From Eggerthellaceae bacterium (GTDB lineage Bacteria > Actinomycetota > Coriobacteriia > Coriobacteriales > Eggerthellaceae), in assembly GCA_017432445.1 (NCBI GenBank), contig JAFRJC010000087.1, positions 18,483-82,482 of the forward strand: a stretch of DNA of 64,000 bases, in the 5' to 3' direction. A program made the position numbers and the translations under genes. The notes below the pieces were generated by a model. That model made no database searches. It worked only from the letters and a program-made list of their open reading frames with translations, and was not told the origin of the DNA. Shown piece after piece: positions 36,034-53,508 of the stretch (position 1 is the first letter of the stretch; every line of letters starts with the position of its first letter).

Positions 36034-39000
36034 TTAAGCAGCCTGCACTTGAGCGGAACCAGCCCCCTCCTCGTCGCCTTCTCCGTCATCGTCCTTACGC
36101 TTCTTGCGTGCCAGGAACGCTACGACGATCTGCGCGATGCAGATGATGGCAAACAGGACCGACCAGCGGTCGAATAGCGCCATGGTCTGGGTAAAGTCCT
36201 GCGTGACGAACAGCAAGACGATTGCCACGACGCCAATCGCCAGCGCCAAGATGCGCAGGCCGCGGTGGCGGTCGAACGCCCTGGCATCGTCGTTGCGTTC
36301 GTTGTCAGCAGCCGTTTCATGCTCGGCGACACGCAGGGCTGCATCTTCGCCGTCTGGACCATTCCCGTCATCGCCGTCGCGACGCTTTCGCCCGAACAGG
36401 CCGACGGCCAGCACCAGGGCAACCAGAACTGCGAGCACGGTCGCCACCACATCGAACAGCGACCACGAGCCCTCTGAACCATCCGTCAGGGCCGTTCCCT
36501 CGTCATCTTCGATCGTCCGCACGGTGGGCACGCCGTCATCCACGACCACTTCACCCATCCGCGAGAACACAGGTGCGGTATCCCGCTCGCTCACTTCGGG
36601 CGTGCCGCCCGAGCTAGCCGGCTCGGTCGCCTTCGCGGGCTGCGCCGCCTGGACGGGACGCGCGGCAGTATAGATAACCACTATCTTCAAATCACCTGCC
36701 GGCATCGCTCCCACAAGGCTTCGGTAATCAGGTTGGTAACCGTTGATTTCGGGAGAGACAACCTCGAAGCGCACGCCCTCGGCGAGCTGCTCAACATGGG
36801 CGGAAGCCGCTTGGTCGCCGTTTTCGTAGCGGTACTCGATCGTTAGCGTATATGCTAGTTGACCTGCGTCGGGCTCAACTTGCTCGGCGCCAGACGGCGA
36901 CTCTGTGACAGTTAGGGTCCCGAACGACTCCGACACGTTGTAGTTGTTTTCCAGGGCGTCGGTGCGCACGTAGGAGAACGTGTTCTCGGACGTACCCACT
37001 TCGGTCTGCGAGCCGCTGAAGAAGTAGCCGACGTTTTCGCCCTCGACGAACCCCTCGTCACCTTCGACCTCGTGACGCACAAGCGGCGCGCCATCGTAGA
37101 CCTTCGAATCGCTTGCCGACACAAGCTGCACCGACCTCTTCGTCACCTGAATAGAACCATCGGCTATGGCGAAGGTCACGTTGTTGAAGTTCGGGTTGGT
37201 GTTGGCGAACTGGTCGGCGGACAGGCCCATGTTCGTGGTGCCCACGTCTGTGCGCGCGGCCGCCGCCTCGCCCGAGAACGCAAAGTCGTCCTCGGTGTAC
37301 AGGTTGCCGACGCTGCTGACGCTCTTCACCTTATAGCCTTTCGCAATGTGCTCTGTGCCGTCGTATTCCGCCGCCTCGACATTGCCGGCTATATGTACGG
37401 TGGCAGGAATGGCGTTGACCTTCAGGTTACCGTCCGCAATGGCGAACGTCACATCGTAATTGGTGTCGGAATTTGCAAAGTCTCCCGCTTCGAACACGAG
37501 CGGGGTCGAGCCCACGTCGGTGCGCGCGGCCTTCGCATTGCCGGTATAGCTCACAGAAGACAAGTCGTATCGCGAGGTCGCATCCGATGCAACTCTCATG
37601 CCAACGGGCTCGCCCAACGAGAGCTCGTAGCCGCTGATTTCGTGCTCCTCGCCGTCGTAATCAATCTCGGCGCTAGAACCTGCAACGTAGACCGTCACGC
37701 GAACGGGGTTCACCTTCAGCCCGCCATCTGCGACCTCGAACACGACGTTCTCGAAGTTCGGGTTGGTGTTGGCGAACTGGTCGGCGGACAGGCCCATGGG
37801 CGTGGTGCCGGCGTCGGTGCGCGCGGCCTTGGCCTCGCCCGTGAACGCGAAGTCGTCCGCCGTGTACAGCGGGTTGCTCGCCTCGAAGTCATAGCCGCTG
37901 ACCGAGTGCTCCTCGCCGTCGTAGACGGCCTCGTCGGAATGCCCGGCGACCTTCACTACGACCTCGCCGTTCGGCGTGATCCTCTGGTAGCCGTCCTCGA
38001 CCTCGAAGACGACGCCCTCGAAGTTCGGGTCGGCGTTGGCGAACTGGGAGGCGGCGAGGCCCATGTTCGTGGTGCCCACGTCGGTGCGCGCGGCCGCCGC
38101 CGAGCCGGTGAACTCGAAGCCCGCCGCGTCGCCCTCGACCGCGTACAGCGGCGTGGAGGACGTCGCCGTGTAGCCCGAGACCGAATGCTCGGCGCCGTCG
38201 TAGACGGCCGTGGCCGTGTTGCCCTTGACCGTGACGGTGGCCGACGCGCGGCCCACGGCCACGTAGCCGTCGACCACGTCGAACACCACGTCCTCGAAGT
38301 CGCCGCTCGCGTTGGAGAACTGCTCGGGGGACAGGCCCATGTACGAGGTGCCCGCGTCGGTGCGCGCGGCGCTGGCCCCGCCCGTGAACGCGAAGTCGTC
38401 CGCCGTGTACAGCGGGTCGCTCGCCTCGAAGTCGTAGCCCTCGGCCGCATGCTCATCGCCGTCGTAGACGGCCTCCGCGGTGTGCCCGGTTATGCGCACG
38501 ACCACGCCTCCGGCGGGGGCGATGGACAGGTAGCCGTCGGAGACGACGTACTCGACGTCGAAGTTGGGGTCGGTGTTGGCGAACTGCTCCGCGGCGAGGC
38601 CCATGTTCGTGGTGCCCGCCTGCGTGCGCACGGCCGCCACCTCCCCGCCGACGAGCACCGCACCGGAGGCCGGCGTGAACGAGGTGCTCGCCCGGGCGTC
38701 GTACAGGTCGCTCGACGCGGCGAGCGCGTAGCCGGAGACCGCGTGCTCCTTGCCGTCGTAGACGAGCGCGTCGTGCGCGCCCTCGACCGACACGGTGACC
38801 GCGGCGGGCGTTATCTGCAGGCTGCCGTCCTCGACCTCGAAGGCCACGTCGGCGAAGTTGGCGTTCTGGTTGGCGAAGCTGCCGGCCGAGAGGCCCATGG
38901 GGTAGGTCCCGACGTTGGTGCCGGCCGCGCGGTCCGCGCCCACGAGCGCGACGTCTGACGGCGCGTACAGCGGGTTGCTGACCTCGAGCACCTCGTAGCC

Positions 39001-42000
39001 GGAGACCGACCTCTCGGTGCCGCAGTACGTGCCGGACGCGGTCGCGCCGGCTATGCGCACGACCACCCGCTCGGCCACGGGCGTCACCCGCAGGTGCCCG
39101 TCGGCAACCTCGAACGAGACGTCGAAGTTCGGGTCGGTGTTGGCGAACTGGTCGGCGGACAGGCCCATGTTCGTGGTGCCCACGTCTGTGCGCGCGGCCG
39201 CCGCCTCGCCCGAGAAGGCGACGGAGCCGAGATCGTAGAGCGCGCTGCCGGAGGAGAGCTCGAAGCCCTCGACCCGCTGCTCGGTCCCGTCGTACTCCAC
39301 CTCGGCGACTCCGCCCGCGACCTCGACGGTCGCCGGCGCGGGCGTGACGCGGGCGCGGCCGTCGGCCACGACGAAGCGCACGTCCGAGAAGTCGGGGTTG
39401 GTGTTGGCGAACTGCTCCGCGGCGAGGCCCATCTCGGCGGTGCCCGCGTCCGTCAGCGCGGCGCGCGCCTCGCCGGTGAACTCGATGTTGGAGCTGGAGT
39501 AGAGCTCGTCGCTCGCCTGCACGTCGTAGCCCTCGACCACGAACTCCTCGCCGTCGTAGACGCGCGAGGCCTCGTGCCCGGTGATGTAGACCACCACGCC
39601 GCCGGCCGGGGCGATGGAGAGCTGCCCGTCGGCGACGTCGAACGAGACGTCGAAGTTCGGGTCGGTGTTGGCGAACTGGGAGGCGGCGAGGCCCATGGGG
39701 TAGTCGCCCGCGCGCACGCCCGAGGCCCGAGCCGCGCCGGAGAAGGCCACGCCGCGCGCGACGTCGTACAGCTCGGAATCGGCGGAGGCCTCGTAGCCCT
39801 CCACGGACTGCTCGGAGCCCGTGTAGGACACGGCCGCCCGCGTGCCCACGACCCTCACCTGAACGGCCAGCGGGTCGACGCGCAGCCCGCCGTCGGTCAC
39901 GCTGAACACGACGTTCTCGAAGTTCGGGTTGGTGTTGGCGAACTGGTCGGCGGACAGGCCCATCGGATAGGTGCCCGCACCCACGGCGACAACCTTGTCA
40001 GAGCCCAGGAAGGTGAAATCATCAGCCGTGTACAGGCTACCCGAGATATTCGCTTCGTAGCCTTCTGCAACATGTGCTTCGCCATCGTAGGTTGCCGTCG
40101 TTGAATGGCCGACGATGACGACCTGCGCGGTCGTCGGTATAACGGTCTGGTAGCCATCGACAACGCTGAACATGACTTCGGCGAAGTTCGGGTTGGCGTT
40201 GGCGAACTGGTCGGGCGCCAGGCCCATGTACGAGGTGCCGGCGTCGGTGCGCGCCACCTCGGACGTCCCTGTGAACACGAAGTCGCTCGCCGTGTACAGC
40301 GGCGTGGAAGACGTCGCCGTGAAGCCCGAGACCGAATGCTCGATGCCATCATAGGTTGCTTTGTCGATCGAGCCCGTCACCGAGACGCTGACGTTAATGG
40401 GAGCTACGGTCAGGTACCCATCGACCACCTTGAACGTGACGTTTTCGAAGTTCGGGTTGGTGTTGGAGAACTGGTTGGCGACAAGGCCCATGTACGAGGT
40501 GCCCGCGTCGGTGCGCGCGGCGCTGGCCCCGCCGGCGAAGGCGAAGTCGTCCGCCGTGTACAGCGGGTCGCTAATCTCGGCGTCGAAGCCCTCCGCAAGG
40601 TGTTCGGCGCCGTCGTAGCTAAACAAGCCGTTCCGACCCGTGATGGTGACCACCACGTCGCCCGCAGGAACTATGGTCAAATATCCGTCCGCCACCCTGA
40701 ACTCGACATGATCGAAGTTCGGGTTGACGTTGGCGAACTGCTCGGGCGCGAGGCCCATGTACGAGGTGCCGGCGTCGGTGCGCGCCACCTCGGACGTCCC
40801 CGCGAACTCGAAGTCGTCCGCAGTGTAGAGCGGAGTGGAGAAGTGCGCCTCGTAACCCTTCGCGCTATGCTCGGCGCCGTCGTAGGTCACGGCGTCATGG
40901 TTGCCCGTAATAGTCACAACCGCATCGATGGGCGAAATGGCAAGCCAGCCGTCCTGGACCTCGAACGCAACGTCGAAGTTCGGGTTGACGTTGGCGAACT
41001 GCTCGGCGGAAAGCCCCATTGCGTAACGTGCGCGCGCGTTTTCGCCCCGAGCCGTCGCCTCGCCTTCGAAGAGGACGTAATCGCTGTTGTACAGGCTGTT
41101 CGTGGTCGTAAGGCGATAGCCTTCCACCTGCTGTTCCTCGCCCGTGTAGGACCGCGTGGCCGTATTGCCCACAATGGTGACGGTCACGGCGGCAGGAGCT
41201 ATGGTCAGACCGCCGTCGACCACAATGAACTCGACGTCGTCGAAGTTGGGGTTCACGTTTTCGAACTGTGCCGAATCGAGGCACATCGGATAAGACCCGG
41301 CATCGACGCCCGAAGCGGCCAAAGGCCCGCTATAGGCGAAGTCCGCTCCAGCCGCGGGTGTACCTGCTGCCTCGTCTGCCTCGACAGGCTCAACTCGATA
41401 CAGCGCGTTGCTGGACTGTGCCGTGTATCCGACGGCCGCATGCTCGGCGCCGTCGTAGCTGCAGGCGAGCGTCTTGCCCGTCACGGTAACGGTCGCCCGC
41501 GCTTTGCCGATGGCAAGCCAGCCGTCGGACACGATGAACGTGACATCGTAGTTCGCGTCATCGTTGACGAACGGGCCCGACTCTCCCGGTCCGAAGGTGC
41601 CCTCTGCCAACCCCATCGGATACGTGCCGGCATTGGTGCCCGCAGCCGAAGCGCCCACGCCTTCGGCTAGATGGAAGTTGCTTTCGGCATACAGGCCGGT
41701 GGAGCTCGTTATGCTCGTGTCGTATCCCTCGACGCCGTGCTCCGACCCATCGTACGTCGTCGAGAGGCGGCTGCCTTCGACGGTCACGACGGCGGTTGCA
41801 GGCGCCACCTCGACGAAGCCGTCGGCGACGGCGAACACCACATCGGGGAAGTTCACGCGATCGTCGTTTGCGAACTGATCTGCGGCGAGGCCCATGGATT
41901 CGCGGCCTGCATCGGTACGGCTCACTTTCGCATCGCCTGTAAACGTTATATTAGAAGCGGTGTAACGCCAATCGCTGAACTGCAGCGTGTAGCCCTGGGC

Positions 42001-45000
42001 TTCGAGCGCTTGTCCGGTGTAGGTCCCTGTGGCGCTGTTGCCCACAACGTTGACCACGACCTGGCCCGCTGGCGCGATGGACAGCCAGCCGTCGGTCACC
42101 AGGAAGGAGACGTCGAAGTTCTCGTTGCCGTTTGTGAAGTCGGCAGGCGAAAGCCCCATGGGATACAGCCCGGCGTTCGTGCCCTGAACGGTCGCATCGC
42201 CCGCAAAGCCAACGTTGGCATCAACGTCGTAAAGCGACGTGTCGGCAGAGGCTATATAACCCTCCACCTTCTGCTCTGAACCGGAATAGGACTTGGTGGC
42301 GGTTGCGCCCGCGATGCTCACCTTGACGACGAGCGGGTTCACGCGCGCATATCCGTCAGCCACGACGAACGTCACGTCCGCGAAGTTCGGGTTGACATTG
42401 GCGAACTGCTCGGGGGCCAGGCCCATGTACGTGGTGCCGGCGTCGGCGCGCTCGGCTTGCGCCTTGCCATCGAAGCGCACATCGTTGACGACGTCGTAAA
42501 GGGGCCGCGCTGCCGAAGCGGCCTCGCCTGCGCTCCCGTTCACATCGGCTGTAGCCGTAAAGCCGCGCGCCATGTGCGTAGCCCCATCGTAGTCGACCGT
42601 TGTGGTAGCGCCCACGATGGTGACGGTGGCGTTGATGGGCACAACGGTCTGGAAGCCGTCGACGACCCTGAACGTCACGTTCGCAAAGTTCGGATTAGCG
42701 TTTGCGAACTGCTCGGGGGCAAGGCCCATGTGCGTGGTGCCGGCGTCGGTGCGCGCAGCCTTGGCCTCACCGGTGAAGGTGAAGTCGTCTTCGTTATAGA
42801 GCTCGTCGCTGATCTCGGCGTCGAAGCCCTCCACGCTATGCTCTGCGCCGTCGTAGTCGCATACTGCCGAGTGTCCTGTGATGACGACCTGCGCAGTTGC
42901 CGGCTCGACGGTCTGGTAGCCGTCGACGACCCTGAACGTGACGTTTTCGAAGTTCGGATTGTCGTTTGCGAACTGGTCTGCGGCGAGGCCCATGTACGTG
43001 GTGCCGGCGTCGGTGCGCGCGGCCTTGGCCTCGCCGGTGAAGGTGAAGTCGGCCGCATCTGCGCCGACTGCGTACAGCGGCGAGGAGGACGTGGCCGTGT
43101 AGCCCTCGACCTCATGCTCGGTACTATCGTAGGTCGTAGTCGAGTTTACACCCCTGATCGTGACAACGGCCGTTATGGGATTCACCGTGACGGAACCGTC
43201 TTCAACCTTGAACTCGACGTTTTCGAAGTTGGTGTTGATATTGGAGAACTGCTCGGCGGTAAGACCCATGCTGGCCGTGCCCGCATCGGTGAGCGCCGCT
43301 TGCGCTTCCCCTGTGAATATGAAGTCGGCCGCCTTGTACAGGGGGTTGCTTATGGCCACGTCGTAGCCGCGCGCAACGTGCTCGAGCCCGTCGTAGTCGG
43401 CTTTCACGACGTGTCCCGTGATCGTGACAACGACTTCGTCGGCCGGCGTCACCTGCTGATAACCGTCGGTCACGTTGATGGCGGTCACGCTGAAGTTGGG
43501 GTTGGAGTTGGCGAACTGGTCGGAAGTCAGGCCCATGTCGGTGGTGCCCGCATCGGTGCGCGCTGCATACGCGACGCCGTCGTGTGCGAGGAAGGAAGCC
43601 TTGTACAAGGGCGAGCTTGCCTCCACGTCGTAACCGCTCGTGGAGTGCTCGGTTCCATCATAGGCGTTGACTCCCGTATGCCCAATCACGCTCACGTTCA
43701 CTTCGAGCGGCGCTATGCTCAGGCAACCATCCTTGACCTCGAACGTCACGTTGAAGTTGGGGTTGGAGTTGGCGAACTGGTCGGAGGTCAGGCCCATGGC
43801 ATAGGTGCCGGCGTCAACGGCCGTTACTGTGGCGTTTCCGCTGAAAGCCACGTCGTCTTGCCGGTACAGCTCGCTATCGGACGAAAGCGTGTATCCTTCG
43901 GCTGCCTGGGTGCGGCCCGAGTAGACTGTCTCGAGCACGCCTCCCGCAACGGACACCTTCACCTGGGCAGGATTGATCCGCAGGCTACCGTCTGTCACCT
44001 TGAACGTGACGTTTTCGAAGTTGGGATTGGCGTTTTGGAAATCGTCGGCGGAAATACCCATGGCGAAGAAGCCTGCGTTCGTCGACTTCACGGCAGCATC
44101 GTCCGTGAAGGAGAAATCCGTGGCGCCTTCGGAGGCGTCCACGCGGTAAAGCGCGTTGTTTGCAGACACCTCAAATCCGCTGGCTGCATGCTCCAAGCCG
44201 TCGTAGGCAAACGTCTTGGCGTCGCCTACGATGTTGACGACTACTCGATTGGTCACGGGTGAGATCACGAGTCGGCCATCGGTCAGCCTCAGCTCGACAT
44301 CCACGTTTGCTTTGTTGGCGTTTTGGAAGTCGCCTTCCACAAGGCCCATCGCATAGGTGCCGGCGTTGACGCCCGCAGCCTTCGCATCGTCGGGCGCCAC
44401 ACGCGCGACCAAATCGGTTTCGACGTCAAACGCGGGGTTGCTCGACTGTACCGTATAGCCGCTAACTACATGCTCCTCGCGGTCGTATGCTACGTTGAGC
44501 ACAGCGCCCGCGATGGTGACGACAGCCTTCTGCTTGGTCACGGTCAGACGCCCATCGACCACCTGGAAGACGACGTCGTAGTTCTGGTTGGTGTTGGCGA
44601 ACTGCGAGGTTGCAGCACCCGGACCGAACGTGCCTTCTGTCAGGCCCATAGGATACTCGCCCGCATCCGTACCCGTCACCGACGGGTCGGCATCTGCTGC
44701 AAGCTCGAAGTCTGATTCGCCGTAGGCACCGGTGGAGCTTTCGATGGTGACATCGTAACCGCTGACAGTATGTGCCGCGCGGTCGTAGACGACCTGGTCC
44801 GTATGCCCCTTGACGTTCACATTCGCCGTCGCGCGCGCAACTTCCACGAATCCGTCTTCCACGACGAAGACGACATCCGGGAAGTTCACGGGATCGAGGT
44901 TGGTGAACTGGCTGGCGGCAAGACCCATCTGCGTGGTACCGGCGTCGGTACGCGTCGCCGTTGCCGTTCCGCTGAACGAGAAGTCCTCTGCCTTATAGCG

Positions 45001-48000
45001 CTCATCGCTTATCGACACGTCATAGCCCGTCGCCGTGAGCGGCCGGCCGGTATAGGTGCCCGAAGCGCGCTTGCCCGTCACCGTGACGATGACCTGATCT
45101 GCAGAAACGATGGTCAAACCACCGTCGACCACATCGAAGGCGACGTCGAAGTTGTTGCTTGTGTTTGCAAACTGGCCGACGGAAAGCTTCATCGGATACG
45201 ATCCCGCGTCGGTTCCGCGGGCAACAGCTTCACCTGCGAACTGCACGAATTCGTCGACATCGTACAGAGAGTCGGCCGTGCTTGCCTTGAAGCCCTCCAC
45301 CGACTGCTCCTTGCCGGAATACGGAGCCGACAGCTTCTCGCCCACAATCGAAACAGCCACAGAGCGCTTCGTCACCGTCTGATAGCCGTCGACCACGTCG
45401 AAGACGACATCGCTGAAGTTGGCGTTGGTGTTGGCGAACTGGTCGGCGGAAAGCCCCATGTACGTGGTGCCCGCGTCGGTGCGCGCGGCAACCGCCTCGC
45501 CCGAGAACACGAAATCGGCTTCGGTATACAGCGAAGGCGTTATGCTGGCCGTATAGCCTTCCACCGAATGCGCGTCACCGTCATAATCTGCCGTGGAGCG
45601 CGCGCCTACGATGCTCACCGTCGCCGCAATCGGCTCGACAGTCTGGTAGCCGTCGGTCACGGTGAAGGTCACGGCGCTGTAGTTGACCGTATCCGAACAG
45701 GTAAACTTGTCAGCGGAAAGCCCCATCTCCGTAGTGCCTGCGTCGGTGCGCGCGGCGTGTGGCGTGCCCTCGTAACGCACGAGGGACGGGTCGAACACAA
45801 GCCGATCGTCTGCACGCCCGCGATTCACGTCGGCGACGATGTCGTAGCCGTCCACCGCGTGTTCTTGCCCGTCAAAAGCCACGGTGCTCGTGGCGCCGGT
45901 GATGGCAACCTCCACCCGCACGGGCCTGATGATTTGGTAGCCGTCGGCCACATCGAAGGTGACGCTGGAGAAATCGGGGTTGTCGGCCACTTCGAACATT
46001 TCGGCGGAAAGCCCCATCTTGGTGGTGCCTGCCTTGAGGCGCGCCGCGCGCGCCTCGCCCGTGAACGTCACGTTGGCCGCGATGTCGAACAGCGGCTGGC
46101 TGCCCTCAGCCAGCCCTTCGTTCACGCTAGCCCGCGCCGTGTAGCCGGAAACCACATGCTCGAGGGCATCGTAGTCGTTCTCGGCGCACGCGCCTTCGAT
46201 CTGCACCGTCACTGCGATGGGCGATACGCTCACCCAGCCGTCGGTCACGGTGAAGACGGGTGCGAAATTGTCGTTTTTGTTGGTGAACTGATCTGCGGAA
46301 AGGCCCATGGCCTTCGTTCCCGCATGGACGAGCGCCACCGAGGCCTTTGCCCGGTCGGGCGCCGTGAAGTCGTCTGTCGTGTACAGGTCATCTTGGATGT
46401 CGACTTCGAAGCCCTCGGCCACGTGCTCGCACGCGTCGTAGTCGTGCACAGCCGTATTGCCCGTCACGGCCACGACCACAGGGCGCTTCGTGACGGTCTG
46501 GTAGCCGTCGGTCACCTCGAAGGTCACCTTGGAGAAGTTGGCGTTGGCATTGGCGAATTGGTCGGCGGAAAGACCCATGTACGCCGTGCCCGCGTCTGTC
46601 TGAGAAGCCGTCGCCGCCTGCTGCTCGGGCCCCGTGAAGTCGGCCTCGGTGTACACATCCGAGCTGATTAGCACGTCGTAACCCGAAACTGCATGCGCTT
46701 CGCCGTCGTAGGCGCCGGTCGCGTTGTGGCCGATGATGGTGACCACGACCTCGTCGGCCGGCGTCACCTGCGAATAGCCATCGGAAGCCACTGCAAACGC
46801 TACGTCGAAGTTTTCGTTATCGCAGCCAAACTGATCGGCGGCCAAGCTCATGTACGCCGTGCCGACGTCGGTTTGCGAGGCGGAGGCTTTGCCTGTGAAG
46901 GTGATATCCGCCACGTCGAACAGCTCCGAGTCGGCCTGGGCATCCCAACCCTCGACCACATGCGCTTTCCCGTCATAGGGCGCGACGCCCACATGTCCAT
47001 CCACGCTCACGCCCACCTTCAACGGCAGCACGGTCACGAAGCCATCGGTCACATCGTAGGTCACGTTGAAGTTGGGATTGGTGTTTTCGAAGCGCTCGGA
47101 GGTCAAGCCCATGTTCTCCGTGCCCGCATCGACGAGCGCCACGCTCGGCATCTGCTCCTCTTCACCACCAGCCGACGCAAAGGTCGTCCAGGACGCCGCA
47201 TCGTATAGCGAGCTTCCCGACTCGAACGTCGTAAAGCCGCTTGCCACGTGCTCTTGCCCGTCATAGACGGTCGTCACCTGCTGGCCGACCACCTTCACCG
47301 TCACGTCGGCGGGCACGATCTCCAGCCCGCCGTCTTGGACGAGGAACTCGACCCAAGCGAAGTTGTCCGACAAATTCTTGAACTGCTCTGCCGCCAGGCT
47401 CATAGGATAGCTGCCCACGTCTATGCCGGAGGCCACCTCGCTGCCGTCGAAGGCGAAGTAGCTTTCCTTGTAACGAGCATCCGATATGCCGGTTACCGTA
47501 TAGCCTTCAACCTTCTGGCTTGTGCCGTTATAAACAAGCGTCTGGGAATTGCCCTTGACGCTCACCACCACCATCTTCTGGACGGGTGTGATGGTCAGAG
47601 AGCCGTCGGTCACGCTGAACACGACGTCGAAGTTGTTGTTGAGGTTCACGAGCCGATCGTGCGACAGGCCCATGGCTGTCGTGCCCGCATCGGTGCGCGC
47701 TGCTTTGACCTCGCCGTTCACGGTGAAGTCGTCACGGGTGTACAGCTCGCTCGAGCATTTCACGTCAAACCCCTCGACGCTCTGCTCGGCCCCGGTATAT
47801 TCGCGGGTGGCGCTGTTTCCGGTGATGGCCACGTTCACCGAAAGCTTTCGGATGGTCAGCTCGCCGTCAGTCACCTCGAATTTGACGTCGGTGAAGTTCT
47901 GGTTCAGGTTTGCAAATCCACTGCGCGCCAAACCCATCGGATAGGTGCCGGCGTTCGTGCCCTTCACGGCGCTCGAGCCGCTGTAGGCGTAGTCGAGCAC

Positions 48001-51000
48001 GCCCGTCTCGTCTGCCTGCGTGCGATAGAGCGGATTGCTTGCCTGCACCGTGAAGCCGGAAGCCGAGTGCTCCACGCCGTCGTAGTCCACAGCTTCAATC
48101 GCGCCGACAACGGTTACCACCACGGTCTCGGTTATGCGGTTGATGACGAGCCCGCCATCTTGCACGACGAAGGCCACATCGACGTTGCCGCTGTTCGAGT
48201 TCGCGAAATCGGCCTCGGTCAGGCCCATGGCGTACGTGCCGGCATCAGTCTTGGCGACGCGCATCTGCGACGCGTCCTTCTTCGCCACGAGGTCGCGCTC
48301 CACGTCGAAGGCCGGGCTGGACGATATCGCGGTATAGCCCTCGGCCACGTGCTCCTGCCCGTCGTAGGTCACCGCTTCGGGGAAGTCGCCCTTGATCGTG
48401 ACGATGGCCTGCGCCTTCGCGATGTCCACATAGCCGTCTGTGACCACGAACGTGACTTTGGCAAAACTCTCGTTCTTGTTTTCGAACTGCTCGGGCGAAA
48501 GGCCCATGGGCGCATAGCCCGCATCGGTCGCCGCGACCTCGGCGCTGCCCGTGAATGCGAAGTCTGCCTCGGTATAAGCCGGATCGCTCGCGGTGAACGT
48601 GTATCCGCTCGCCGCGTGCTCGTTGCCATCGTAAGTTGCAATCTTGCCGTCACCGGTGATGGTGACGACCACCTCGTCGATCGGCGTGATGGTCAGGCTG
48701 CCGTCGGTGACGATGTTAAACGTCGGGTCGTAATTGTCGTTTTTGTTGGTGAACTGGGAGGCGTCCAAGCCCATCGTGTACACGCCGGCCTGGGTGCCCG
48801 CAGCCTTGGCATTGCCGGTAAACGTGAAGTCGGCCTCGGTGTAAGCCGTGTCGCTCGGAGTCGCCGTATAACCCTCAACGCTCTGCTCCGCTCCCGAGTA
48901 AGTCACGGTTCCGGTAGCGCCGACGATGTTGACCTGCACCTTCGCAGGCGTCACCTCCTGGCGCCCGTCGACGACCGTCACTTCTCCCAGCTCGAAGTTG
49001 CTCGTGTCCGCAAGGCTGAACTGGCTTGCCTCAAGCCCCATCTCGGTGGCGCCAGCATCCGTGCGCGCGGCTTCGGCCACGCCGCTGAACTGCAGGTCGG
49101 CCACCTCGAAGGCCACGTTGTCAGCCATGACGTCGTAGCCGGAAACGCTGTGCTCCTGCGCGTCGTAGGGCACGCTGGACACATGTCCGGTCACAGTCAG
49201 GTTCACCGTCGGCTTGGTCACGGTCAGACGCCCGTTGCTCGCGTGCGTCGTCACATAGTAGCGGTTCGTGTCGTATGAGCCCACGCTCACGGAAAGCTCG
49301 TCGTCGTAAGTGCCCGCATTCACGCCAGACGCCCTGCCGGAAATGCTGTAGGAGATACCTTCGGGCAGCTCGTCAACCTTTTCGCCTGCCACCGTGAAGC
49401 TCATGGCGGGTTCGTCGTTGACCTTGGCCTTGCCGTCGTAGGCTACCCGGGCGTTGGCGCCCGTTGCCGTTATGGTGACGTTCTTCGCCCACACGGCGTA
49501 CAGCACGTTGCTTTCCTCGTCGACCTTGTCGACCGTCACGGCACCGCCCAGCTTGAAAGAGACGCGGTTATCGTCGCCCGGCGAAAGCGACCAGCCAACG
49601 AGCGTATAGCCCTCGCGCGAAAGCTCGTCTCCCAAGCTCAAGGTGCTCGTCTTGTTCACGGGGATCGTCTGCGAGGGGATGGTGCCGTTGCCTCCATTGG
49701 GGCTGTAGCTTATCTGGGCTGTCACGTCGTAAGTCACGTATTCGGCTATAAGATGCACGGAGCTTCCCTGTTCGCCGCGTACGATGCAGTCCTGATTGAC
49801 GGTGAAAGTCTGGCCGGGGTAGCACAGCGCCCCCTGCTTGCCGTCAACGCGCACGACGCGCCAGCCCACGAACACCTTGCCCTGAGGAGGTGTGGGGGCG
49901 TCCTTGGCGGTGACCTTCGCCCCGTCGGTGTAGAGCGCATAATCGCTCGGGGCTCCCTCGCCCTCGTTTGCGTCGTAGACAACGGAAACGTCTTCGCCGG
50001 TCGTCCAACGTGCAACCAGGTGAAGGTCGCCCTGCACGCCTGCATCGAAATTCCACGGCACGCCGTCGGCCGCATCCACGTTCCAGCCGGTCAGCGTATA
50101 ACCCTCGCGAACCGCCTGCATCAGCGACGAGCCTGCGATCGCGTCACCGTACTGGACCCAGAAGTCATCGACCTGCCCCTGGGGCAGCGTGCCGCCCGCC
50201 TCGTCGAGCGTCACATGGAACCATTTCTTCATCCAGCCGGCATACACGACCAGGTTGTTGGCCGGCATGGCCTCGTAGGTGGTGAAGCTGTGCACGTTCC
50301 AGTCCGATTCCAACTCGGCACGCAAATCGTCCGAAATCGGATTGCCGAACGAGACGTAGGTCGTGCACTCGGGGTCGGCGAACCAACCCACGAACTCATG
50401 CATGCTCGCCTCGTTGGCGTTGCCCGGGAAGGCGGGCGCAGCTGGAGCCTGCACGCCCGAAAGCGATTGCTCGAACAGGCGGCTGACCGTGCCGATGCTG
50501 CCCGACGAGCCGTTGCGGAAGTCGATGTCGTAGCTTTGCCGCTGGTAGCGTATTCCGAGAGGTGAGGAGTAGTTGGCATTGTTGCCGGATTTAGCCGTAG
50601 ACCAACTGCCAGAGGTACCCGAGGAGTTATTGCTCTGGTATTCGGCCACCTTGAAGCCGTTGTACTTCTCGGTGAAGGTGAACTTTCCGCTCGAGGAACT
50701 CGCATAGCCCCGGTCGCTGGGCTCTTCGGGGTAGCTGCCGTCGGCGTTCTGCAGGTAGAAGTTAAAGGTGCCGCCTACGGCGCCGTTGGTCTCAAACGTG
50801 ATCGAGGTCATATAGCCATCGCTGTCGGGCAAGATGAACTCGCCTAGGAAGGTCATGCCCGAACTGGAGTACTTCCACGTGCCTTCCGGCCAGCTGTAGC
50901 CGTACCTGCTCAGCGTTTGACCGTACAGGCCGCTGATGATCAAGCGCGCCTCCTGCGAACCGCGCGTGTAGCGCACGCCGTCGTAGGGCGCGCCATTGTA

Positions 51001-53508
51001 CGTGTACGTATACGTGGTGGCAGTCTTGCCCTTCAGCTGCACGTACGAGCCATCGACCAGGCCGTAATACGTGGTCGATGTATTGGTTGAATCCGTGGGA
51101 GTGTAGGTGTTGCCCTTTTTCGTGTAGCGTGTACCGGTGTAGGTGACCTCGGTCTTCCAGAGCCAGCTGCCCGTCTCGTAGTAGTAGCTGTACGCCGTCT
51201 GTGACGTGCGCGAAAGCTCCACGTACTCGCCATTAACGTAGCCGTACTGCGTACCAGAGGTCGAAGTTGTGGAGGTGTAGGTATAGCCGGTCTCGCCGAT
51301 GCCCTTGAAGGTCATCGTGATCAGGTCGCGGTCGTAGTATACGTTGAGCACGGTGGAGCCGTCGGCAGCCACCGTCGCCTGGGAGTCGGTCTTGGCGCTG
51401 TTCAGGTGGAAGCCCTGGTATTTTTTCGCAAGATCCGCATCGGTGGGCACCACGACCTCGTCGGTGTAGGAGCTGCGCTGCGCCGATTCCTTGTAGTCGT
51501 AGGTCTTGTCAGCGTCGGCGGCGTCCTTGTCGTCGCTGACGCGCTGCTGCCAGAAGATCACGGTATAAGCTGCGCTCGCCTTCTTCCAGCCAGCGTAGGC
51601 CGTTGTCTTGGTGTTGTAGGCGCGCGTGAAGTCGAAGGTCTGCGTGCACGCCGCATCCGCGTACCAGCCAGTGAAATTGTAGCCGGCGCGTTGCGGGTCG
51701 GCTGGACGCGTGGGAGATTCGTCAAAGCCCACGTACTCGGGAGCCGTGTAGCTGGCGCCGCCGCCCGCGCCTCCGTCGTTCTCGTCGAAGTACAGCCAAT
51801 AAGCCTTGCCGAACACGGGATACAGCGTCGTGTCGTCAGATAGCGTCAGGTTCTCGCCAGCCGGGAACTGCACTTCGGTTGCCGCGGGGTCTTCCGTCCA
51901 GCCCAGGAAGCGCTCGTCATCGTTGACCGAGGTGGCAGAATGGACGCCCACGGCGGCTACGGCCTCTGCAGCTCCCTTTTCCGCCGTTGCCTTCACGTTG
52001 GTAAGTACGGGCCATTCGGCGTCTGCGCCGGCACGCCCGTTCATGAGCGTCGCGTAGAACACGGTGTTGATCTCGCCCACCACGTCGATGGTCGCGTTGC
52101 GCTCGATGGTTTCGACCTTGCCGAACTGCACTGCATCGCTCGTGCCGCGCACGTACCAACCCGAGAACTCCTCATGCTCGGCCAGCTCGGGAACGGGCGG
52201 CCTTACCAAGGTGTCGCCTTCCTTCACGATCTGGGTTGCAGGCTCTCCGTTCACCAGATACTCGCTGGTGCTGCCGGCGGCATCCGTCAGGAAGAAGCGA
52301 TAGGTTGAGCGATACGAGGCGATAAGCTCCACCTCATCGATGAGCACGGCCTCCTCGTCTTCAGCGGGTTGCTCCACTTCGGGCGCCTCGCCCTCGATTA
52401 TCACGATGGCATACACCGAGAACTCGTCGCTGGTAAACGAAATCGAGTTCTGCGCGGTGCCCGACGCCCCCGAGCCCACTACATCAGCAGCGCCGCCATC
52501 GGCCACATGCACCACGGCCACGTCCTGCTCGTCGCTGCCGTTCGCCGCCGCGATATCGGAAGCAGCCATGGTCACCTGGATGTCTGTCGCTGGCTCCACC
52601 TCGTGGGAGACGCCGTTTTCGTCTGTATAGGTGAAGGTGATGTCAACCGCCTTCACGGCCACGGCGCTCGCGTTCACCGCGTCTTCGACGGCGTCGATGA
52701 CCTGGGCGGCGGAAACCGGACTCACGTGCATCTGCGTACCGGCGGGAAACGCCCCCTCGGGCGCGCGGACGCTCACCGTCACGCCGTTCGCGCTGCCCTT
52801 GAAGGTCTGCGCGGGCATGTCCTTGGCCTTCTCGGCTTCGTCTTCCTGCTCGTCCCCCGTCACCAGGAACGTGCTTTCGGCAGCCTCGTCGCCGTTCTCG
52901 ACTGTTTCGTTGGTCTCATCACCCGTGAATAAGACGTCTTGCCCCTCATCGGCTGTTTCTTCGGGCTGTTCGGCTTCGGTCGACTCGCCCGCCTCGGGCT
53001 CGCCTTCTTGCTCGTCGACCACATTAGAGTCTTGCCCGCTTTCCTGGCTCGTCTCCGCTTCAGGCCCCTCGACCTGCGCAGCCTCGTCTTCGACGACGCT
53101 CTGTTCGGAGACCTGCTGTTCGACAGGTGCCTCTTCCTCGTCTCCAGAAAGCTGGATGGCTAGCGCATCCTGCTCCTGCGGCACCGGCTGCTTCGCGACC
53201 TCGACCTTTGGCTTGTTCGCCTCGGCCTCCTCTTCGGCGGCCTTCTTCGCCGCCTCCTCTTGTGCGGCAGCTTCGGCCGCCGCATCGCCCGCGACCGCCC
53301 AGCTGATCGCAGCTACGTTCCACGTCATCAGCGACAGGCATATGACCAGCAAGATGGCGATGACCTTCCCCTCGGGAGTCTTCACGCCATCCATGATTCG
53401 ATTGACGAGGCCCTTCTGCATGATTCCTACCGTTCTCCTAGGTTTTGGCGGCTTGTCCGCCAGCCTTTGCAGCACCCTGCCCTCACTGCCTTTCGGGTGT
53501 TTGGGCAT
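36034..53508 (-). CDS. giant (5,824 aa) cell-surface adhesin: N-terminal TM/signal, acidic spacer, Listeria-Bacteroides repeats, ~45 MBG-type repeats, MucBP-like domain, 3-TM C-terminal tail
   Basis: Single uninterrupted 17,475-nt ORF. A likelier start is the ATG at 53421 (MQKGLVNRI...), which is preceded by AGGAGAA. See the repeat features. The MucBP-like segment is YTLTIEYRYENGDQAA...INGYQPD. No LPXTG is present. Confidence 0.9.
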   Translation of the reverse strand: MPKHPKGSEGRVLQRLADKPPKPRRTVGIMQKGLVNRIMDGVKTPEGKVIAILLVICLSLMTWNVAAISWAVAGDAAAEAAAQEEAAKKAAEEEAEANKPKVEVAKQPVPQEQDALAIQLSGDEEEAPVEQQVSEQSVVEDEAAQVEGPEAETSQESGQDSNVVDEQEGEPEAGESTEAEQPEETADEGQDVLFTGDETNETVENGDEAAESTFLVTGDEQEDEAEKAKDMPAQTFKGSANGVTVSVRAPEGAFPAGTQMHVSPVSAAQVIDAVEDAVNASAVAVKAVDITFTYTDENGVSHEVEPATDIQVTMAASDIAAANGSDEQDVAVVHVADGGAADVVGSGASGTAQNSISFTSDEFSVYAIVIIEGEAPEVEQPAEDEEAVLIDEVELIASYRSTYRFFLTDAAGSTSEYLVNGEPATQIVKEGDTLVRPPVPELAEHEEFSGWYVRGTSDAVQFGKVETIERNATIDVVGEINTVFYATLMNGRAGADAEWPVLTNVKATAEKGAAEAVAAVGVHSATSVNDDERFLGWTEDPAATEVQFPAGENLTLSDDTTLYPVFGKAYWLYFDENDGGAGGGASYTAPEYVGFDESPTRPADPQRAGYNFTGWYADAACTQTFDFTRAYNTKTTAYAGWKKASAAYTVIFWQQRVSDDKDAADADKTYDYKESAQRSSYTDEVVVPTDADLAKKYQGFHLNSAKTDSQATVAADGSTVLNVYYDRDLITMTFKGIGETGYTYTSTTSTSGTQYGYVNGEYVELSRTSQTAYSYYYETGSWLWKTEVTYTGTRYTKKGNTYTPTDSTNTSTTYYGLVDGSYVQLKGKTATTYTYTYNGAPYDGVRYTRGSQEARLIISGLYGQTLSRYGYSWPEGTWKYSSSGMTFLGEFILPDSDGYMTSITFETNGAVGGTFNFYLQNADGSYPEEPSDRGYASSSSGKFTFTEKYNGFKVAEYQSNNSSGTSGSWSTAKSGNNANYSSPLGIRYQRQSYDIDFRNGSSGSIGTVSRLFEQSLSGVQAPAAPAFPGNANEASMHEFVGWFADPECTTYVSFGNPISDDLRAELESDWNVHSFTTYEAMPANNLVVYAGWMKKWFHVTLDEAGGTLPQGQVDDFWVQYGDAIAGSSLMQAVREGYTLTGWNVDAADGVPWNFDAGVQGDLHLVARWTTGEDVSVVYDANEGEGAPSDYALYTDGAKVTAKDAPTPPQGKVFVGWRVVRVDGKQGALCYPGQTFTVNQDCIVRGEQGSSVHLIAEYVTYDVTAQISYSPNGGNGTIPSQTIPVNKTSTLSLGDELSREGYTLVGWSLSPGDDNRVSFKLGGAVTVDKVDEESNVLYAVWAKNVTITATGANARVAYDGKAKVNDEPAMSFTVAGEKVDELPEGISYSISGRASGVNAGTYDDELSVSVGSYDTNRYYVTTHASNGRLTVTKPTVNLTVTGHVSSVPYDAQEHSVSGYDVMADNVAFEVADLQFSGVAEAARTDAGATEMGLEASQFSLADTSNFELGEVTVVDGRQEVTPAKVQVNIVGATGTVTYSGAEQSVEGYTATPSDTAYTEADFTFTGNAKAAGTQAGVYTMGLDASQFTNKNDNYDPTFNIVTDGSLTITPIDEVVVTITGDGKIATYDGNEHAASGYTFTASDPAYTEADFAFTGSAEVAATDAGYAPMGLSPEQFENKNESFAKVTFVVTDGYVDIAKAQAIVTIKGDFPEAVTYDGQEHVAEGYTAISSSPAFDVERDLVAKKDASQMRVAKTDAGTYAMGLTEADFANSNSGNVDVAFVVQDGGLVINRITETVVVTVVGAIEAVDYDGVEHSASGFTVQASNPLYRTQADETGVLDYAYSGSSAVKGTNAGTYPMGLARSGFANLNQNFTDVKFEVTDGELTIRKLSVNVAITGNSATREYTGAEQSVEGFDVKCSSELYTRDDFTVNGEVKAARTDAGTTAMGLSHDRLVNLNNNFDVVFSVTDGSLTITPVQKMVVVSVKGNSQTLVYNGTSQKVEGYTVTGISDARYKESYFAFDGSEVASGIDVGSYPMSLAAEQFKNLSDNFAWVEFLVQDGGLEIVPADVTVKVVGQQVTTVYDGQEHVASGFTTFESGSSLYDAASWTTFASAGGEEEQMPSVALVDAGTENMGLTSERFENTNPNFNVTYDVTDGFVTVLPLKVGVSVDGHVGVAPYDGKAHVVEGWDAQADSELFDVADITFTGKASASQTDVGTAYMSLAADQFGCDNENFDVAFAVASDGYSQVTPADEVVVTIIGHNATGAYDGEAHAVSGYDVLISSDVYTEADFTGPEQQAATASQTDAGTAYMGLSADQFANANANFSKVTFEVTDGYQTVTKRPVVVAVTGNTAVHDYDACEHVAEGFEVDIQDDLYTTDDFTAPDRAKASVALVHAGTKAMGLSADQFTNKNDNFAPVFTVTDGWVSVSPIAVTVQIEGACAENDYDALEHVVSGYTARASVNEGLAEGSQPLFDIAANVTFTGEARAARLKAGTTKMGLSAEMFEVADNPDFSSVTFDVADGYQIIRPVRVEVAITGATSTVAFDGQEHAVDGYDIVADVNRGRADDRLVFDPSLVRYEGTPHAARTDAGTTEMGLSADKFTCSDTVNYSAVTFTVTDGYQTVEPIAATVSIVGARSTADYDGDAHSVEGYTASITPSLYTEADFVFSGEAVAARTDAGTTYMGLSADQFANTNANFSDVVFDVVDGYQTVTKRSVAVSIVGEKLSAPYSGKEQSVEGFKASTADSLYDVDEFVQFAGEAVARGTDAGSYPMKLSVGQFANTSNNFDVAFDVVDGGLTIVSADQVIVTVTGKRASGTYTGRPLTATGYDVSISDERYKAEDFSFSGTATATRTDAGTTQMGLAASQFTNLDPVNFPDVVFVVEDGFVEVARATANVNVKGHTDQVVYDRAAHTVSGYDVTIESSTGAYGESDFELAADADPSVTGTDAGEYPMGLTEGTFGPGAATSQFANTNQNYDVVFQVVDGRLTVTKQKAVVTIAGAVLNVAYDREEHVVSGYTVQSSNPAFDVETDLVARVAPDDAKAAGVNAGTYAMGLVEGDFQNANKANVDVELRLTDGRLVISPVTNRVVVNIVGDAKTFAYDGLEHAASGFEVSANNALYRVDASEGATDFSFTDDAAVKSTNAGFFAMGISADDFQNANPNFENVTFKVTDGSLRINPAQVKVSVAGGVLETVYSGRTQAAEGYTLSSDSELYRQDDVAFSGNATVTAVDAGTYAMGLTSDQFANSNPNFNVTFEVKDGCLSIAPLEVNVSVIGHTGVNAYDGTEHSTSGYDVEASSPLYKASFLAHDGVAYAARTDAGTTDMGLTSDQFANSNPNFSVTAINVTDGYQQVTPADEVVVTITGHVVKADYDGLEHVARGYDVAISNPLYKAADFIFTGEAQAALTDAGTASMGLTAEQFSNINTNFENVEFKVEDGSVTVNPITAVVTIRGVNSTTTYDSTEHEVEGYTATSSSPLYAVGADAADFTFTGEAKAARTDAGTTYMGLAADQFANDNPNFENVTFRVVDGYQTVEPATAQVVITGHSAVCDYDGAEHSVEGFDAEISDELYNEDDFTFTGEAKAARTDAGTTHMGLAPEQFANANPNFANVTFRVVDGFQTVVPINATVTIVGATTTVDYDGATHMARGFTATADVNGSAGEAASAARPLYDVVNDVRFDGKAQAERADAGTTYMGLAPEQFANVNPNFADVTFVVADGYARVNPLVVKVSIAGATATKSYSGSEQKVEGYIASADTSLYDVDANVGFAGDATVQGTNAGLYPMGLSPADFTNGNENFDVSFLVTDGWLSIAPAGQVVVNVVGNSATGTYTGQALEAQGYTLQFSDWRYTASNITFTGDAKVSRTDAGRESMGLAADQFANDDRVNFPDVVFAVADGFVEVAPATAVVTVEGSRLSTTYDGSEHGVEGYDTSITSSTGLYAESNFHLAEGVGASAAGTNAGTYPMGLAEGTFGPGESGPFVNDDANYDVTFIVSDGWLAIGKARATVTVTGKTLACSYDGAEHAAVGYTAQSSNALYRVEPVEADEAAGTPAAGADFAYSGPLAASGVDAGSYPMCLDSAQFENVNPNFDDVEFIVVDGGLTIAPAAVTVTIVGNTATRSYTGEEQQVEGYRLTTTNSLYNSDYVLFEGEATARGENARARYAMGLSAEQFANVNPNFDVAFEVQDGWLAISPIDAVVTITGNHDAVTYDGAEHSAKGYEAHFSTPLYTADDFEFAGTSEVARTDAGTSYMGLAPEQFANVNPNFDHVEFRVADGYLTIVPAGDVVVTITGRNGLFSYDGAEHLAEGFDAEISDPLYTADDFAFAGGASAARTDAGTSYMGLVANQFSNTNPNFENVTFKVVDGYLTVAPINVSVSVTGSIDKATYDGIEHSVSGFTATSSTPLYTASDFVFTGTSEVARTDAGTSYMGLAPDQFANANPNFAEVMFSVVDGYQTVIPTTAQVVIVGHSTTATYDGEAHVAEGYEANISGSLYTADDFTFLGSDKVVAVGAGTYPMGLSADQFANTNPNFENVVFSVTDGGLRVDPLAVQVRVVGTRAAVSYTGSEQSVEGYEASADSELYDVARGVAFSGAARASGVRAGDYPMGLAASQFANTDPNFDVSFDVADGQLSIAPAGGVVVYITGHEASRVYDGEEFVVEGYDVQASDELYSSSNIEFTGEARAALTDAGTAEMGLAAEQFANTNPDFSDVRFVVADGRARVTPAPATVEVAGGVAEVEYDGTEQRVEGFELSSGSALYDLGSVAFSGEAAAARTDVGTTNMGLSADQFANTDPNFDVSFEVADGHLRVTPVAERVVVRIAGATASGTYCGTERSVSGYEVLEVSNPLYAPSDVALVGADRAAGTNVGTYPMGLSAGSFANQNANFADVAFEVEDGSLQITPAAVTVSVEGAHDALVYDGKEHAVSGYALAASSDLYDARASTSFTPASGAVLVGGEVAAVRTQAGTTNMGLAAEQFANTDPNFDVEYVVSDGYLSIAPAGGVVVRITGHTAEAVYDGDEHAAEGYDFEASDPLYTADDFAFTGGASAARTDAGTSYMGLSPEQFSNASGDFEDVVFDVVDGYVAVGRASATVTVKGNTATAVYDGAEHSVSGYTATSSTPLYAVEGDAAGFEFTGSAAAARTDVGTTNMGLAASQFANADPNFEGVVFEVEDGYQRITPNGEVVVKVAGHSDEAVYDGEEHSVSGYDFEASNPLYTADDFAFTGEAKAARTDAGTTPMGLSADQFANTNPNFENVVFEVADGGLKVNPVRVTVYVAGSSAEIDYDGEEHEISGYELSLGEPVGMRVASDATSRYDLSSVSYTGNAKAARTDVGSTPLVFEAGDFANSDTNYDVTFAIADGNLKVNAIPATVHIAGNVEAAEYDGTEHIAKGYKVKSVSSVGNLYTEDDFAFSGEAAAARTDVGTTNMGLSADQFANTNPNFNNVTFAIADGSIQVTKRSVQLVSASDSKVYDGAPLVRHEVEGDEGFVEGENVGYFFSGSQTEVGTSENTFSYVRTDALENNYNVSESFGTLTVTESPSGAEQVEPDAGQLAYTLTIEYRYENGDQAASAHVEQLAEGVRFEVVSPEINGYQPDYRSLVGAMPAGDLKIVVIYTAARPVQAAQPAKATEPASSGGTPEVSERDTAPVFSRMGEVVVDDGVPTVRTIEDDEGTALTDGSEGSWSLFDVVATVLAVLVALVLAVGLFGRKRRDGDDGNGPDGEDAALRVAEHETAADNERNDDARAFDRHRGLRILALAIGVVAIVLLFVTQDFTQTMALFDRWSVLFAIICIAQIVVAFLARKKRKDDDGEGDEEGAGSAQVQAA
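36903..49482 (-). repeat. coding tandem array of ~45-46 MBG (YGX-type) domain repeats, ~91 aa each
   Basis: Counted by eye from the recurring unit V(T/S)(I/V)xGxxxxxxYDGxEHxVxGYxxxxSxxLYxxxDFxFxGxAxAxxTDAGTxxMGLxxxQFxNxNxNFxxVxFxVxDGxLxIxP. Confidence 0.8.
49483..52185 (-). repeat. ~7 Listeria-Bacteroides (Flg_new / InlB B-repeat-like) repeats
   Basis: Recurring (G)Y.F.GW motifs: EFSGWYV, FLGWTED, GYNFTGWYADAACTQTFDF, FVGWFADPECT, GYTLTGWNVD, VFVGWRV, GYTLVGWSLS, with ...LYAVW ends. Boundaries are approximate. Confidence 0.65.

Follow-up and report, generated by a model that had tools for sequence, protein, structure and literature searches.

A giant InlB B-repeat-containing protein with an MBG-like stalk and a FILTED tail, a probable fibrillar adhesin of a ruminant-gut Eggerthellaceae bacterium

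Results

The giant gene and its start codon

The DNA analysed here is a stretch of 64,000 nucleotides (nt) of contig JAFRJC010000087.1, assigned to an uncultured ruminant-gut Eggerthellaceae bacterium and hereafter called the window, and its subject is a giant minus-strand gene that probably encodes a fibrillar adhesin. The longest open reading frame (ORF) of this gene occupies 36034..53508 (-), holds 5824 sense codons plus a stop with no stop inside, and takes up 27.3% of the window, which upholds the single uninterrupted ORF over 27% of the window reported in a preliminary description of this DNA. Amino acids (aa) are numbered along this long ORF throughout. The deposited product, GenBank protein MBR0404705.1 ("InlB B-repeat-containing protein"), corresponds to 36034..53421 (-) and consists of 5795 aa from Met30, and no exact database match was found for the 5824-aa version. 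Exact matches to flanking proteins fall in the accession range MBR0404696-716, from a MAG (metagenome-assembled genome) labelled "Eggerthellaceae bacterium".

The most likely start codon is that of Met30 in the long ORF (53419..53421, -). The ATG at 53421 is preceded by the purine-rich sequence AGGAGAA...TAGGAA, is the start chosen by the PGAP annotation, and is the point at which the N-terminus of a partial homologue with 78% identity (P0002) aligns, whereas no Shine-Dalgarno sequence was seen upstream of the ATG at 53508 in the sequence read. A GC-rich hairpin with a T-run behind it (53539..53559, -), located 30 nt ahead of ATG 53508, also counts against translation from that codon. The preliminary description had noticed the same difference between the two ATGs, namely AGGAGAA before 53421 and no ribosome-binding site before 53508, and its preference for 53421 is borne out. 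However, it had called 53508 the annotated start, which is mistaken since the GenBank annotation begins at 53421, and the long basic N-region that it described (aa 1-29) is probably not translated. An Rfam search of the window and of the 5' region of the giant gene returned no riboswitch and no other RNA family.

The N-terminus and the head

The first segment of the product, aa 30-74 (53287..53421, -), reads as a signal peptide or possibly a signal-anchor. It begins with a basic n-region, continues with a 25-aa hydrophobic core (aa 49-73) and ends in the site AVA|GD, and the same long core is kept in P0002. A signal peptide is more likely here than a membrane anchor, with cleavage predicted at AVA|GD, and the homologous heads described below carry classical signal peptides at this place; the N-terminal transmembrane (TM) segment proposed earlier is the less likely reading. 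The stretch that follows, aa 75-229 (52822..53286, -), is an acidic low-complexity spacer with 25% Glu, 17% Ala, and 10% Gln, in line with the Glu/Ala/Gln-rich spacer of ~150 aa that had been recognized at the outset.

The head (aa 230-1341) opens with a distal tip domain at aa ~230-380 (52369..52821, -), a beta-rich fold without a Pfam match that is kept in stand-alone homologues. Three Listeria-Bacteroides or InlB B-repeat (Flg_new) domains then occupy aa 401-640 (51589..52308, -; PF09479, E 5.7e-19, 3 stretches), followed by a central all-beta domain rich in Tyr/Thr hairpins at aa 641-1010 (50479..51588, -) and by four more Flg_new domains at aa 1011-1340 (49489..50478, -; PF09479, E 2.6e-25, 4 stretches). 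The Pfam scan for PF09479 (122.1 bits, cut-off 27) thus finds 3 + 4 = 7 stretches in the head, the same number as the approximately seven Listeria-Bacteroides repeats first proposed. TIGR02543 scores 31.7 bits on the giant protein (cut-off 20.95), and Foldseek matches the B-repeat fold to InlB (2Y5P, TM-score 0.79, probability 1.0).

The predicted model of the head has a predicted local distance difference test (pLDDT) value of 83.5, and the 10-residue blocks of the central domain mostly lie between 68 and 93, with one block at 60. The central domain belongs to no Pfam family (no match at E<=1) and is kept in the homologues P0003-P0015; we regard it as a candidate ligand-binding module. A fold search with the whole head gave no specific Protein Data Bank (PDB) match for the tip and central domains, a PDB sequence search with aa 201-1401 gave no match, and a scan of the contigs of GTDB representative genomes with the head gave no close relative. 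By BLASTP, the head aligns over its full length with stand-alone metagenome proteins of ~1340-1420 aa at 30-37% identity. These homologues begin with ordinary signal peptides, and their C-termini include LPNTG plus a TM segment in P0015 and a TM segment in P0003. On account of this full-length homology and of the signal peptides and LPNTG or TM ends of the homologues, the head is viewed as a portable extracellular module.

Comparison with P0002 shows an abrupt change within this region. Aa 30-450 are 24-60% identical between the two proteins and aa 451-770 are 98-100% identical, and the divergent part covers the signal peptide, the spacer, the tip domain, and the first B-repeat (window ~52160-53421, -). 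This difference is a sharp cassette swap or allelic swap, and such a divergence pattern is expected for an exposed, interacting end. P0002 itself is labelled as coming from a Kiritimatiellae metagenome-assembled genome (MAG) and lies on a 2.8-kb contig that is probably mis-binned.

The stalk repeat

A hidden Markov model (HMM) built from the giant gene's own MGL-anchored segments detects 44 strong copies of a repeat unit (73-129 bits each) and one weak leading copy, head to tail over aa 1341-5459. These 45 tandem MBG-like units form the stalk, aa 1341-5460 (37129..49488, -), and a shorter terminal variant with the pattern YDG...G..TLTV follows at aa 5461-5545 (36874..37128, -; from the alignment), for a total of 45-46; scanned alone, the terminal variant has no Pfam match. 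The units are 88-110 aa long, typically ~92 aa, and read YDG.EH.V.GY...(S..LY)...F.F.G.A.AA.TDAGT..MGL.A.QFAN.N.NF..V.F.V.DG.L.V, with a mean pairwise protein identity of 43% and a maximum of 68%. Both the count of ~45-46 copies of a ~91-aa unit and the consensus quoted in the preliminary description are reproduced by the aligned units.

The family assignment fared differently. The units had been placed in the YGX-type MBG family (MBG_2, PF18676), with the remark that HMM searches pointing to another family would overturn this. PF18676 gave no match at E<=0.01 on any 1400-1600-aa segment and matched 1 of 46 single units (E 0.025), and the assignment accordingly fails on the terms under which it was made. 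The nearest Pfam model, and a weak one, is PF17883 (MBG), which matches 17 of 46 single units at E<=1 (best E 1.5e-7). On long segments, it scores 61.3 bits for aa 1401-3000 and nothing for aa 2901-4500, a segment filled with units, and eight sampled internal units score 13.5, 16.6, or 21.2 bits or nothing against a gathering threshold of 23.3.

Profile and fold searches of the PDB agree in their best match. A profile of the 46 units has the repeat of Lar_0958 (4NG0) as its best match in the PDB (E 0.051). The AlphaFold (AF2) model of two consecutive units is all-beta, with a pLDDT of 97.1 and a predicted TM-score (pTM) of 0.82, and in this model the beta strands continue from one unit into the next to form a rigid tandem. 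Foldseek with the two-domain query again places 4NG0 on top (probability 0.99, E 0.011, TM-score 0.45, root-mean-square deviation 6.2 A). The weak PF17883 scores, together with 4NG0 being the best match of both the profile and the fold search, lead us to call the stalk unit a putative divergent MBG-like subfamily.

Stability of the array and sister assemblies

Two ENA assemblies, reached via the flanking PilT and Veg genes, contain the same locus. Contig k141_693785 of ERZ28019060 (145,928 nt) and scaffold_600 of ERZ28655079 are 99.8-99.99% identical to the window, except that both hold one extra unit of 303 nt (101 aa), which gives a product of 5925 aa (P0149). Apart from this unit, the three assemblies agree at >=99.7% identity. 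The one-unit length difference lies at 45380..45496 (-; L001 gene nt 8013-8432). A 117-nt segment (window 45380-45496) occurs twice in the ENA assemblies, around the extra unit, with 113/117 positions identical and 75 nt exact, whereas the window has a single copy of it and lacks the 303-nt unit. Either the window represents a true variant that has lost one unit, or the assembly collapsed locally, and given the extra unit in the two sister assemblies the count is read as 45/46 ±1. The apparent 4634-aa version in scaffold_600 reflects the contig end only.

At the DNA level, the array is far from uniform. Tandem Repeats Finder reports one 2.6-copy stretch (73%), the DNA repeat families in the array are 60-89% identical over <=300 nt, and the longest exact DNA repeat in the giant gene is 81 nt. 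Two orthologous fragments, P0150 (aa 3594-5824, 81% identity) and P0151 (aa 4164-5805, 68% identity), align unit for unit without indels, so that 14-20 complete C-terminal units are colinear. This colinearity indicates an array that is ancient and largely stable, not a fast-changing satellite. The earlier expectation of a strain-variable repeat number is thus only weakly borne out: one unit does differ between assemblies, while the 14-20 units compared in orthologues do not.

One block of the stalk is compositionally distinct. In units 36-43, aa ~4516-5270 (37699..39963, -), the G+C content at third codon positions (GC3) is 0.94-1.00, compared with 0.69-0.90 across all the remaining units. The block is bounded by an exact direct repeat of 60 nt (gene nt 13546 and 15712), and scaffold_600 ends exactly where the block begins. 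Compared with the units on either side of it, the block resembles P0150 less and P0151 more. This pattern points to a recombinational mosaic rather than a recent amplification and suggests that the block recombined with a higher-GC relative. An origin of the block by chimeric assembly was considered and is unlikely, as the k141 contig spans both block junctions and the colinear orthologues P0150 and P0151 also run across the block.

The MucBP-like module and the FILTED tail

Beyond the stalk, aa 5553-5614 (36667..36852, -) form a MucBP-like module that stays below threshold, with 21.6 bits for Muc_B2 (PF17966; E 3.2e-4, cut-off 23.5) and 15.0 bits for MucBP (PF06458; E 0.042, cut-off 23). The single MucBP-like module of the preliminary description therefore stands as a pattern, whereas neither Pfam model recognizes it above its cut-off. 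The hydrophobic tail had been described as an atypical membrane tail; it is present, but it belongs to a named family. NCBIfam model NF052597, "FILTED domain-containing surface protein", matches aa 5682-5808 of 5824 with 77.9 bits (cut-off 40; E 6.7e-22) over model positions 1-109 of 110, and together with the family alignment it places the C-terminal module at 36085..36513 (-).

The module begins with the motif IEDDEGTALTDG at aa 5666-5677 (window 36478-36513, -). WSLFDV and TM1 follow at aa 5682-5706, then RKRR and an acidic linker; RHRG (RHRGLR) and TM2, which ends in LFVTQD, lie at aa 5751-5771; the loop FTQTMALFDRW separates TM2 from TM3; and TM3 at aa 5783-5800 is followed by RKKRK and an acidic end. 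The family consensus is (I/L)xDDxx(P/A)L(A/S/T)xG ... W(A/S)LxNL-TM1-GRKK - acidic linker in its first part and KRxR-TM2-FILT(E/Q)D - xTxPMxxxDxW - TM3 - RKK - acidic end in its second, and the window protein reads LFVTQDFTQTMALFDRW at the motif. The name-giving motif is also present, with the family consensus AII.FILTEDMT.PM and, in the window protein, IVLLFVTQDFTQTM, a T-Q-D variant (LFVTQD); the T and D positions vary little or not at all. Across 32 diverse FILTED tails, no variation occurs at T90 and D101 and almost none at D92, M97, and W103. Applying the positive-inside rule to the basic clusters RKRR after TM1, RHRGLR before TM2, and RKKRK after TM3, we infer that the bulk of the protein and the FTQTMALFDRW loop are outside and that the acidic linker and the C-terminus are cytoplasmic. 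An LPXTG-like motif ([LIVN][PA].[TSA][GANS]) is absent from the last 400 aa, and PF00746 gives no match. The hydrophobic and basic elements of a sortase-type tail are present, but two further TM segments follow.

FILTED proteins of gut Coriobacteriia and Firmicutes were recovered by an exhaustive HMMER search over 1.84 billion cluster representatives, 1690 of them at E<=1e-3 and 204 at E<=1e-10. Among the 150 matches listed, nearly every FILTED match ends at most ~15 residues from the C-terminus, with P0190 and P0286 as exceptions, and the proteins listed reach 5433 aa. A word-indexed search with the C-terminal 289 aa had returned one fragment only. For pattern design, a narrower tail alignment was used, the broader one being too diverse. 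A genome scan with TQDFTQxM[AV], the variant of Coriobacteriia and some Firmicutes, gave 16 loci in Coriobacteriaceae/Eggerthellaceae, Oscillospiraceae, Faecalibacterium, Christensenellaceae, Lachnospiraceae, Erysipelotrichales/Erysipelotrichaceae, Eubacteriales, and Clostridia. Seven FILTED carriers were scanned for domains, and four contain Flg_new, Flg_new_2, MBG_2, or DUF11/DUF7507, while three have no Pfam match. A literature search for the FILTED domain found no paper.

The FILTED tails P0150-P0299 contain a semi-conserved motif, I-E-D-D-x-x-(P/A)-L-(A/S/T)-x-G, placed 5-10 residues ahead of the W(A/S)LxNL at which TM1 starts, and P[LM] occurs in this stretch in 81 of 130 tails. The combination of the IEDD motif, a hydrophobic segment, and a basic cluster recalls a sortase-type signal.

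Discussion

The layout of the product consists of a signal peptide, an acidic spacer, a conserved head, a stalk of ~45 domains, a MucBP-like module, a Pro/Ala linker, and a three-helix tail. From this layout, we judge that the product is probably a monomeric fibrillar adhesin that an uncultured ruminant-gut Eggerthellaceae bacterium exports by the Sec route and holds with a FILTED membrane anchor. The giant single-ORF adhesin of the preliminary description thus keeps its head-stalk-anchor layout, and an adhesive role is the best reading of it. We applied the operational definition of fibrillar adhesins of Monzon et al. 2021 (PMC8286594). Tandem repetition of stalk domains is shown by the unit HMM and the two-unit model. 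As the adhesive domain, the ~1100-aa N-terminal head is the putative counterpart, its tip and central domains being those without a Pfam or specific PDB match. Export and anchoring would be provided by the signal-peptide-like N-terminus and the FILTED module, both predicted from sequence.

Under this proposal, translation would start from ATG 53421, and the N-terminal signal peptide would take the chain across the membrane and then be cleaved. The C-terminal FILTED module would stay in the membrane as a three-helix anchor with its basic residues at the cytoplasmic side and a conserved short outside loop after the F-I-L-T-E/Q-D motif. The MucBP-like module and the ~45 rigidly joined MBG-like beta domains would constitute a stalk that crosses the wall. 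A beta domain of ~92 aa spans about 3.5-4.5 nm, and with ~45 such domains the predicted stalk would be roughly 150-200 nm long. At its end, the stalk would hold out the head of ~1100 aa, with its tip, seven InlB-type B-repeats, and central beta domain, and this head may bind a ligand on host mucus or glycans, feed particles, or other microbes.

The general kind of protein is already known, as an InlB-B-repeat/MBG-like fibrillar adhesin, and this one is deposited under a generic name. Ebh, SiiE, LapA, SasG, and Rib-family proteins, which we take to be giant fibrillar or periscope adhesins, share their layout with the window protein and differ from it in stalk domain family and anchor type. In fibrillar and periscope adhesins, a single chain carries a binding region at its distal end, a stalk built from tandem beta domains, and an anchor at its proximal end (PMC8286594, PMC9704523). 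In periscope proteins, near-identical DNA repeats give rapid and frequent length change (PMC9704523), whereas the present array has a mean unit identity of 43%, no exact repeat longer than 81 nt, and a single one-unit difference, and it does not fall within that type.

CmbA (Lar_0958, 4NG0) is a cell- and mucus-binding adhesin of Limosilactobacillus reuteri whose repeat number is 8 or 11 depending on the strain and whose repeats have misled assemblies (PMC13339910). This surface adhesin has an N-terminal signal, as predicted for the window protein, and tandem MBG-type beta units of ~95 aa that resemble the MBG-like units here. However, its 8-11 repeats are identical in DNA and it ends in an LPXTG wall anchor, whereas the present protein has ~45 diverged units, an InlB-B-repeat head, and a FILTED membrane tail, and the similarity between the units is weak (20% identity, TM-score 0.45). 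The InlB B-repeat proteins of Firmicutes (P0003, P0005-P0010, and P0015; ~1350-1420 aa) have the same tip, B-repeats, and central domain, but in proteins of this type the head is the last part or is followed by SpaA-like domains and LPXTG. A long MBG-like stalk is absent from all full-length head homologues, and a few partial ones have 1-4 MBG-like units. The FILTED family shares with the window tail its three hydrophobic segments and the motifs W(A/S)L.NL, FILT(E/Q)D, PM...D.W, and RKK, and among the matches listed the window protein is the largest carrier, with 5.8 kaa (thousand amino acids) compared with 5433 aa for the next.

Several points weigh against an adhesin held by a FILTED anchor. 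No domain of demonstrated adhesive function was found above threshold in the giant protein, and the central head domain has no recognizable structural relative by fold search. The anchoring role of FILTED is read from sequence features and from the C-terminal position of the module, and expression, export, and surface display are likewise predictions. The sequence was assembled from metagenome data, and two sister assemblies each have one unit more. Finally, a hydrophobic core of 25 residues is long for a signal peptide, and if it were left uncleaved, both ends of the protein would be tethered to the membrane.

This last point underlies a very improbable alternative, in which an uncleaved signal-anchor and FILTED together would make the protein a scaffold of the envelope or surface layer, or a spacer, and not an adhesin that projects outward. 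The core (aa 49-73) is indeed long enough to span the membrane and is kept in P0002, but an AXA-type site (AVA|GD) follows it, homologous heads carry ordinary cleavable signal peptides, and the fast-evolving tip and acidic spacer fit a free distal end. Somewhat less far-fetched, though still improbable, is the idea that the window gene is partly an assembly artefact, with repeats collapsed or expanded or with a chimeric join that brought in the high-GC3 block from a relative. It would account for the 303-nt unit, flanked by the 117-nt near-identical repeat, that both ENA assemblies have and the window lacks, and for the coincidence of extreme GC3, a 60-nt exact repeat at the block bounds, and a contig end in one assembly. 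Yet the units are diverged, with DNA identities of about 60-89% and no exact repeat above 81 nt, and the k=141 contig k141_693785 spans both junctions at a range longer than the 60-81-nt repeats. In addition, the frame is intact over 17.5 kb, and P0150 and P0151 are colinear across the block without indels, and any artefact is limited to ±1 unit. A functional link to the type IV pilus-like genes that lie directly upstream on the same strand (53905-59036, -), for example as a pilus-associated or pilus-exported adhesin, has next to no likelihood. The set comprises a PilT/PilU ATPase, four pseudopilin-like ORFs, a PilC/T2SSF protein, and a transglutaminase-like gene, but pilT and the giant gene are ~400 nt apart, with two hairpins in between, the giant protein has its own predicted signal peptide and membrane anchor, and FILTED genes in other genomes are not beside pilus genes; we rejected the link to a pilus operon as positional only.

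The remaining alternative concerns the tail. FILTED may be a sorting signal, in which an enzyme would recognize IEDD..(P/A)L(A/S/T).G and/or T(E/Q)D..PM...D.W, cleave the protein, and link it to the wall or release it, by analogy with LPXTG and sortase or with PEP-CTERM and exosortase. We consider this unlikely as well. A short motif with a hydrophobic helix and a basic cluster before or at TM1 does resemble a sortase signal, and the motifs are family-wide, with their invariant or nearly invariant residues. However, no conserved neighbour gene was found beside FILTED genes in eight genomes, and two more conserved TM helices with a cytoplasmic linker exceed the needs of a cleavable signal. In a broader and only slightly less doubtful form, FILTED could be the recognition module of an uncharacterized, widespread sorting or anchoring pathway for surface proteins of gut anaerobes. 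Such a pathway may serve giant adhesins in place of sortase and LPXTG in Coriobacteriia, Oscillospiraceae, Lachnospiraceae, and Erysipelotrichales, and the invariant T..D and PM...D.W at the membrane surface, along with IEDD..PL..G, may be processing or partner-binding sites. If this were true, the present gene would be the largest known substrate.

A membrane-anchored fibrillar adhesin remains the reading that we prefer, and with it a surface protein of 0.6 MDa would be the likely main determinant of what the cells attach to. To our knowledge, MAGs are almost the sole source of information on uncultured ruminant-gut Eggerthellaceae. As the case illustrates, the recurrent three-helix C-terminal FILTED module, for which an NCBI model exists, is found in many Gram-positive fibrillar adhesins that lack LPXTG. 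The gene is of modest practical value as a well-defined test substrate for FILTED function. It is also of some interest for its FILTED anchor, for a stalk subfamily that Pfam largely misses (most of the 45-unit stalk escapes current models), and for a tip and a stalk block that have evolved as mosaics. Furthermore, the case shows where metagenome assemblies of repeat genes deserve trust and where they do not.

Genomic neighbourhood

The pilus-like set upstream of the giant gene reads, on the minus strand, as a transglutaminase-like lipoprotein (58056-59036), PilC/T2SSF (56958-58010), four small ORFs with pseudopilin-like N-terminal hydrophobic segments, one of them with DUF4860 (55052-56897), and the PilT/PilU ATPase (53905-54984). 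Within the stretch examined, an assembly ATPase of the PilB type was not seen. The ~400-nt interval from pilT to the giant gene contains a hairpin immediately after the pilT stop (53829-53888).

Just downstream of the giant gene are a homologue of Veg, a biofilm formation stimulator (35531-35926, +), and a second putative surface protein of 501 aa with BspA-type LRR_5 and Big_2 domains (33591-35096, -). Two paralogous ORFs at 60597-61730 (-) and 62850-63971 (-) share 127 identities over 280 aligned residues and give no Pfam match; in both, a coiled-coil-like region rich in Glu, Ala, and Gln is joined to a conserved C-terminal domain (DPRWSPAIA..ESS...YNAWGWG). The ORF at 30285-31355 (+) matches only the C-terminal part of the Mutator-family transposase PF00872 (E 1.7e-5) and is probably a remnant.

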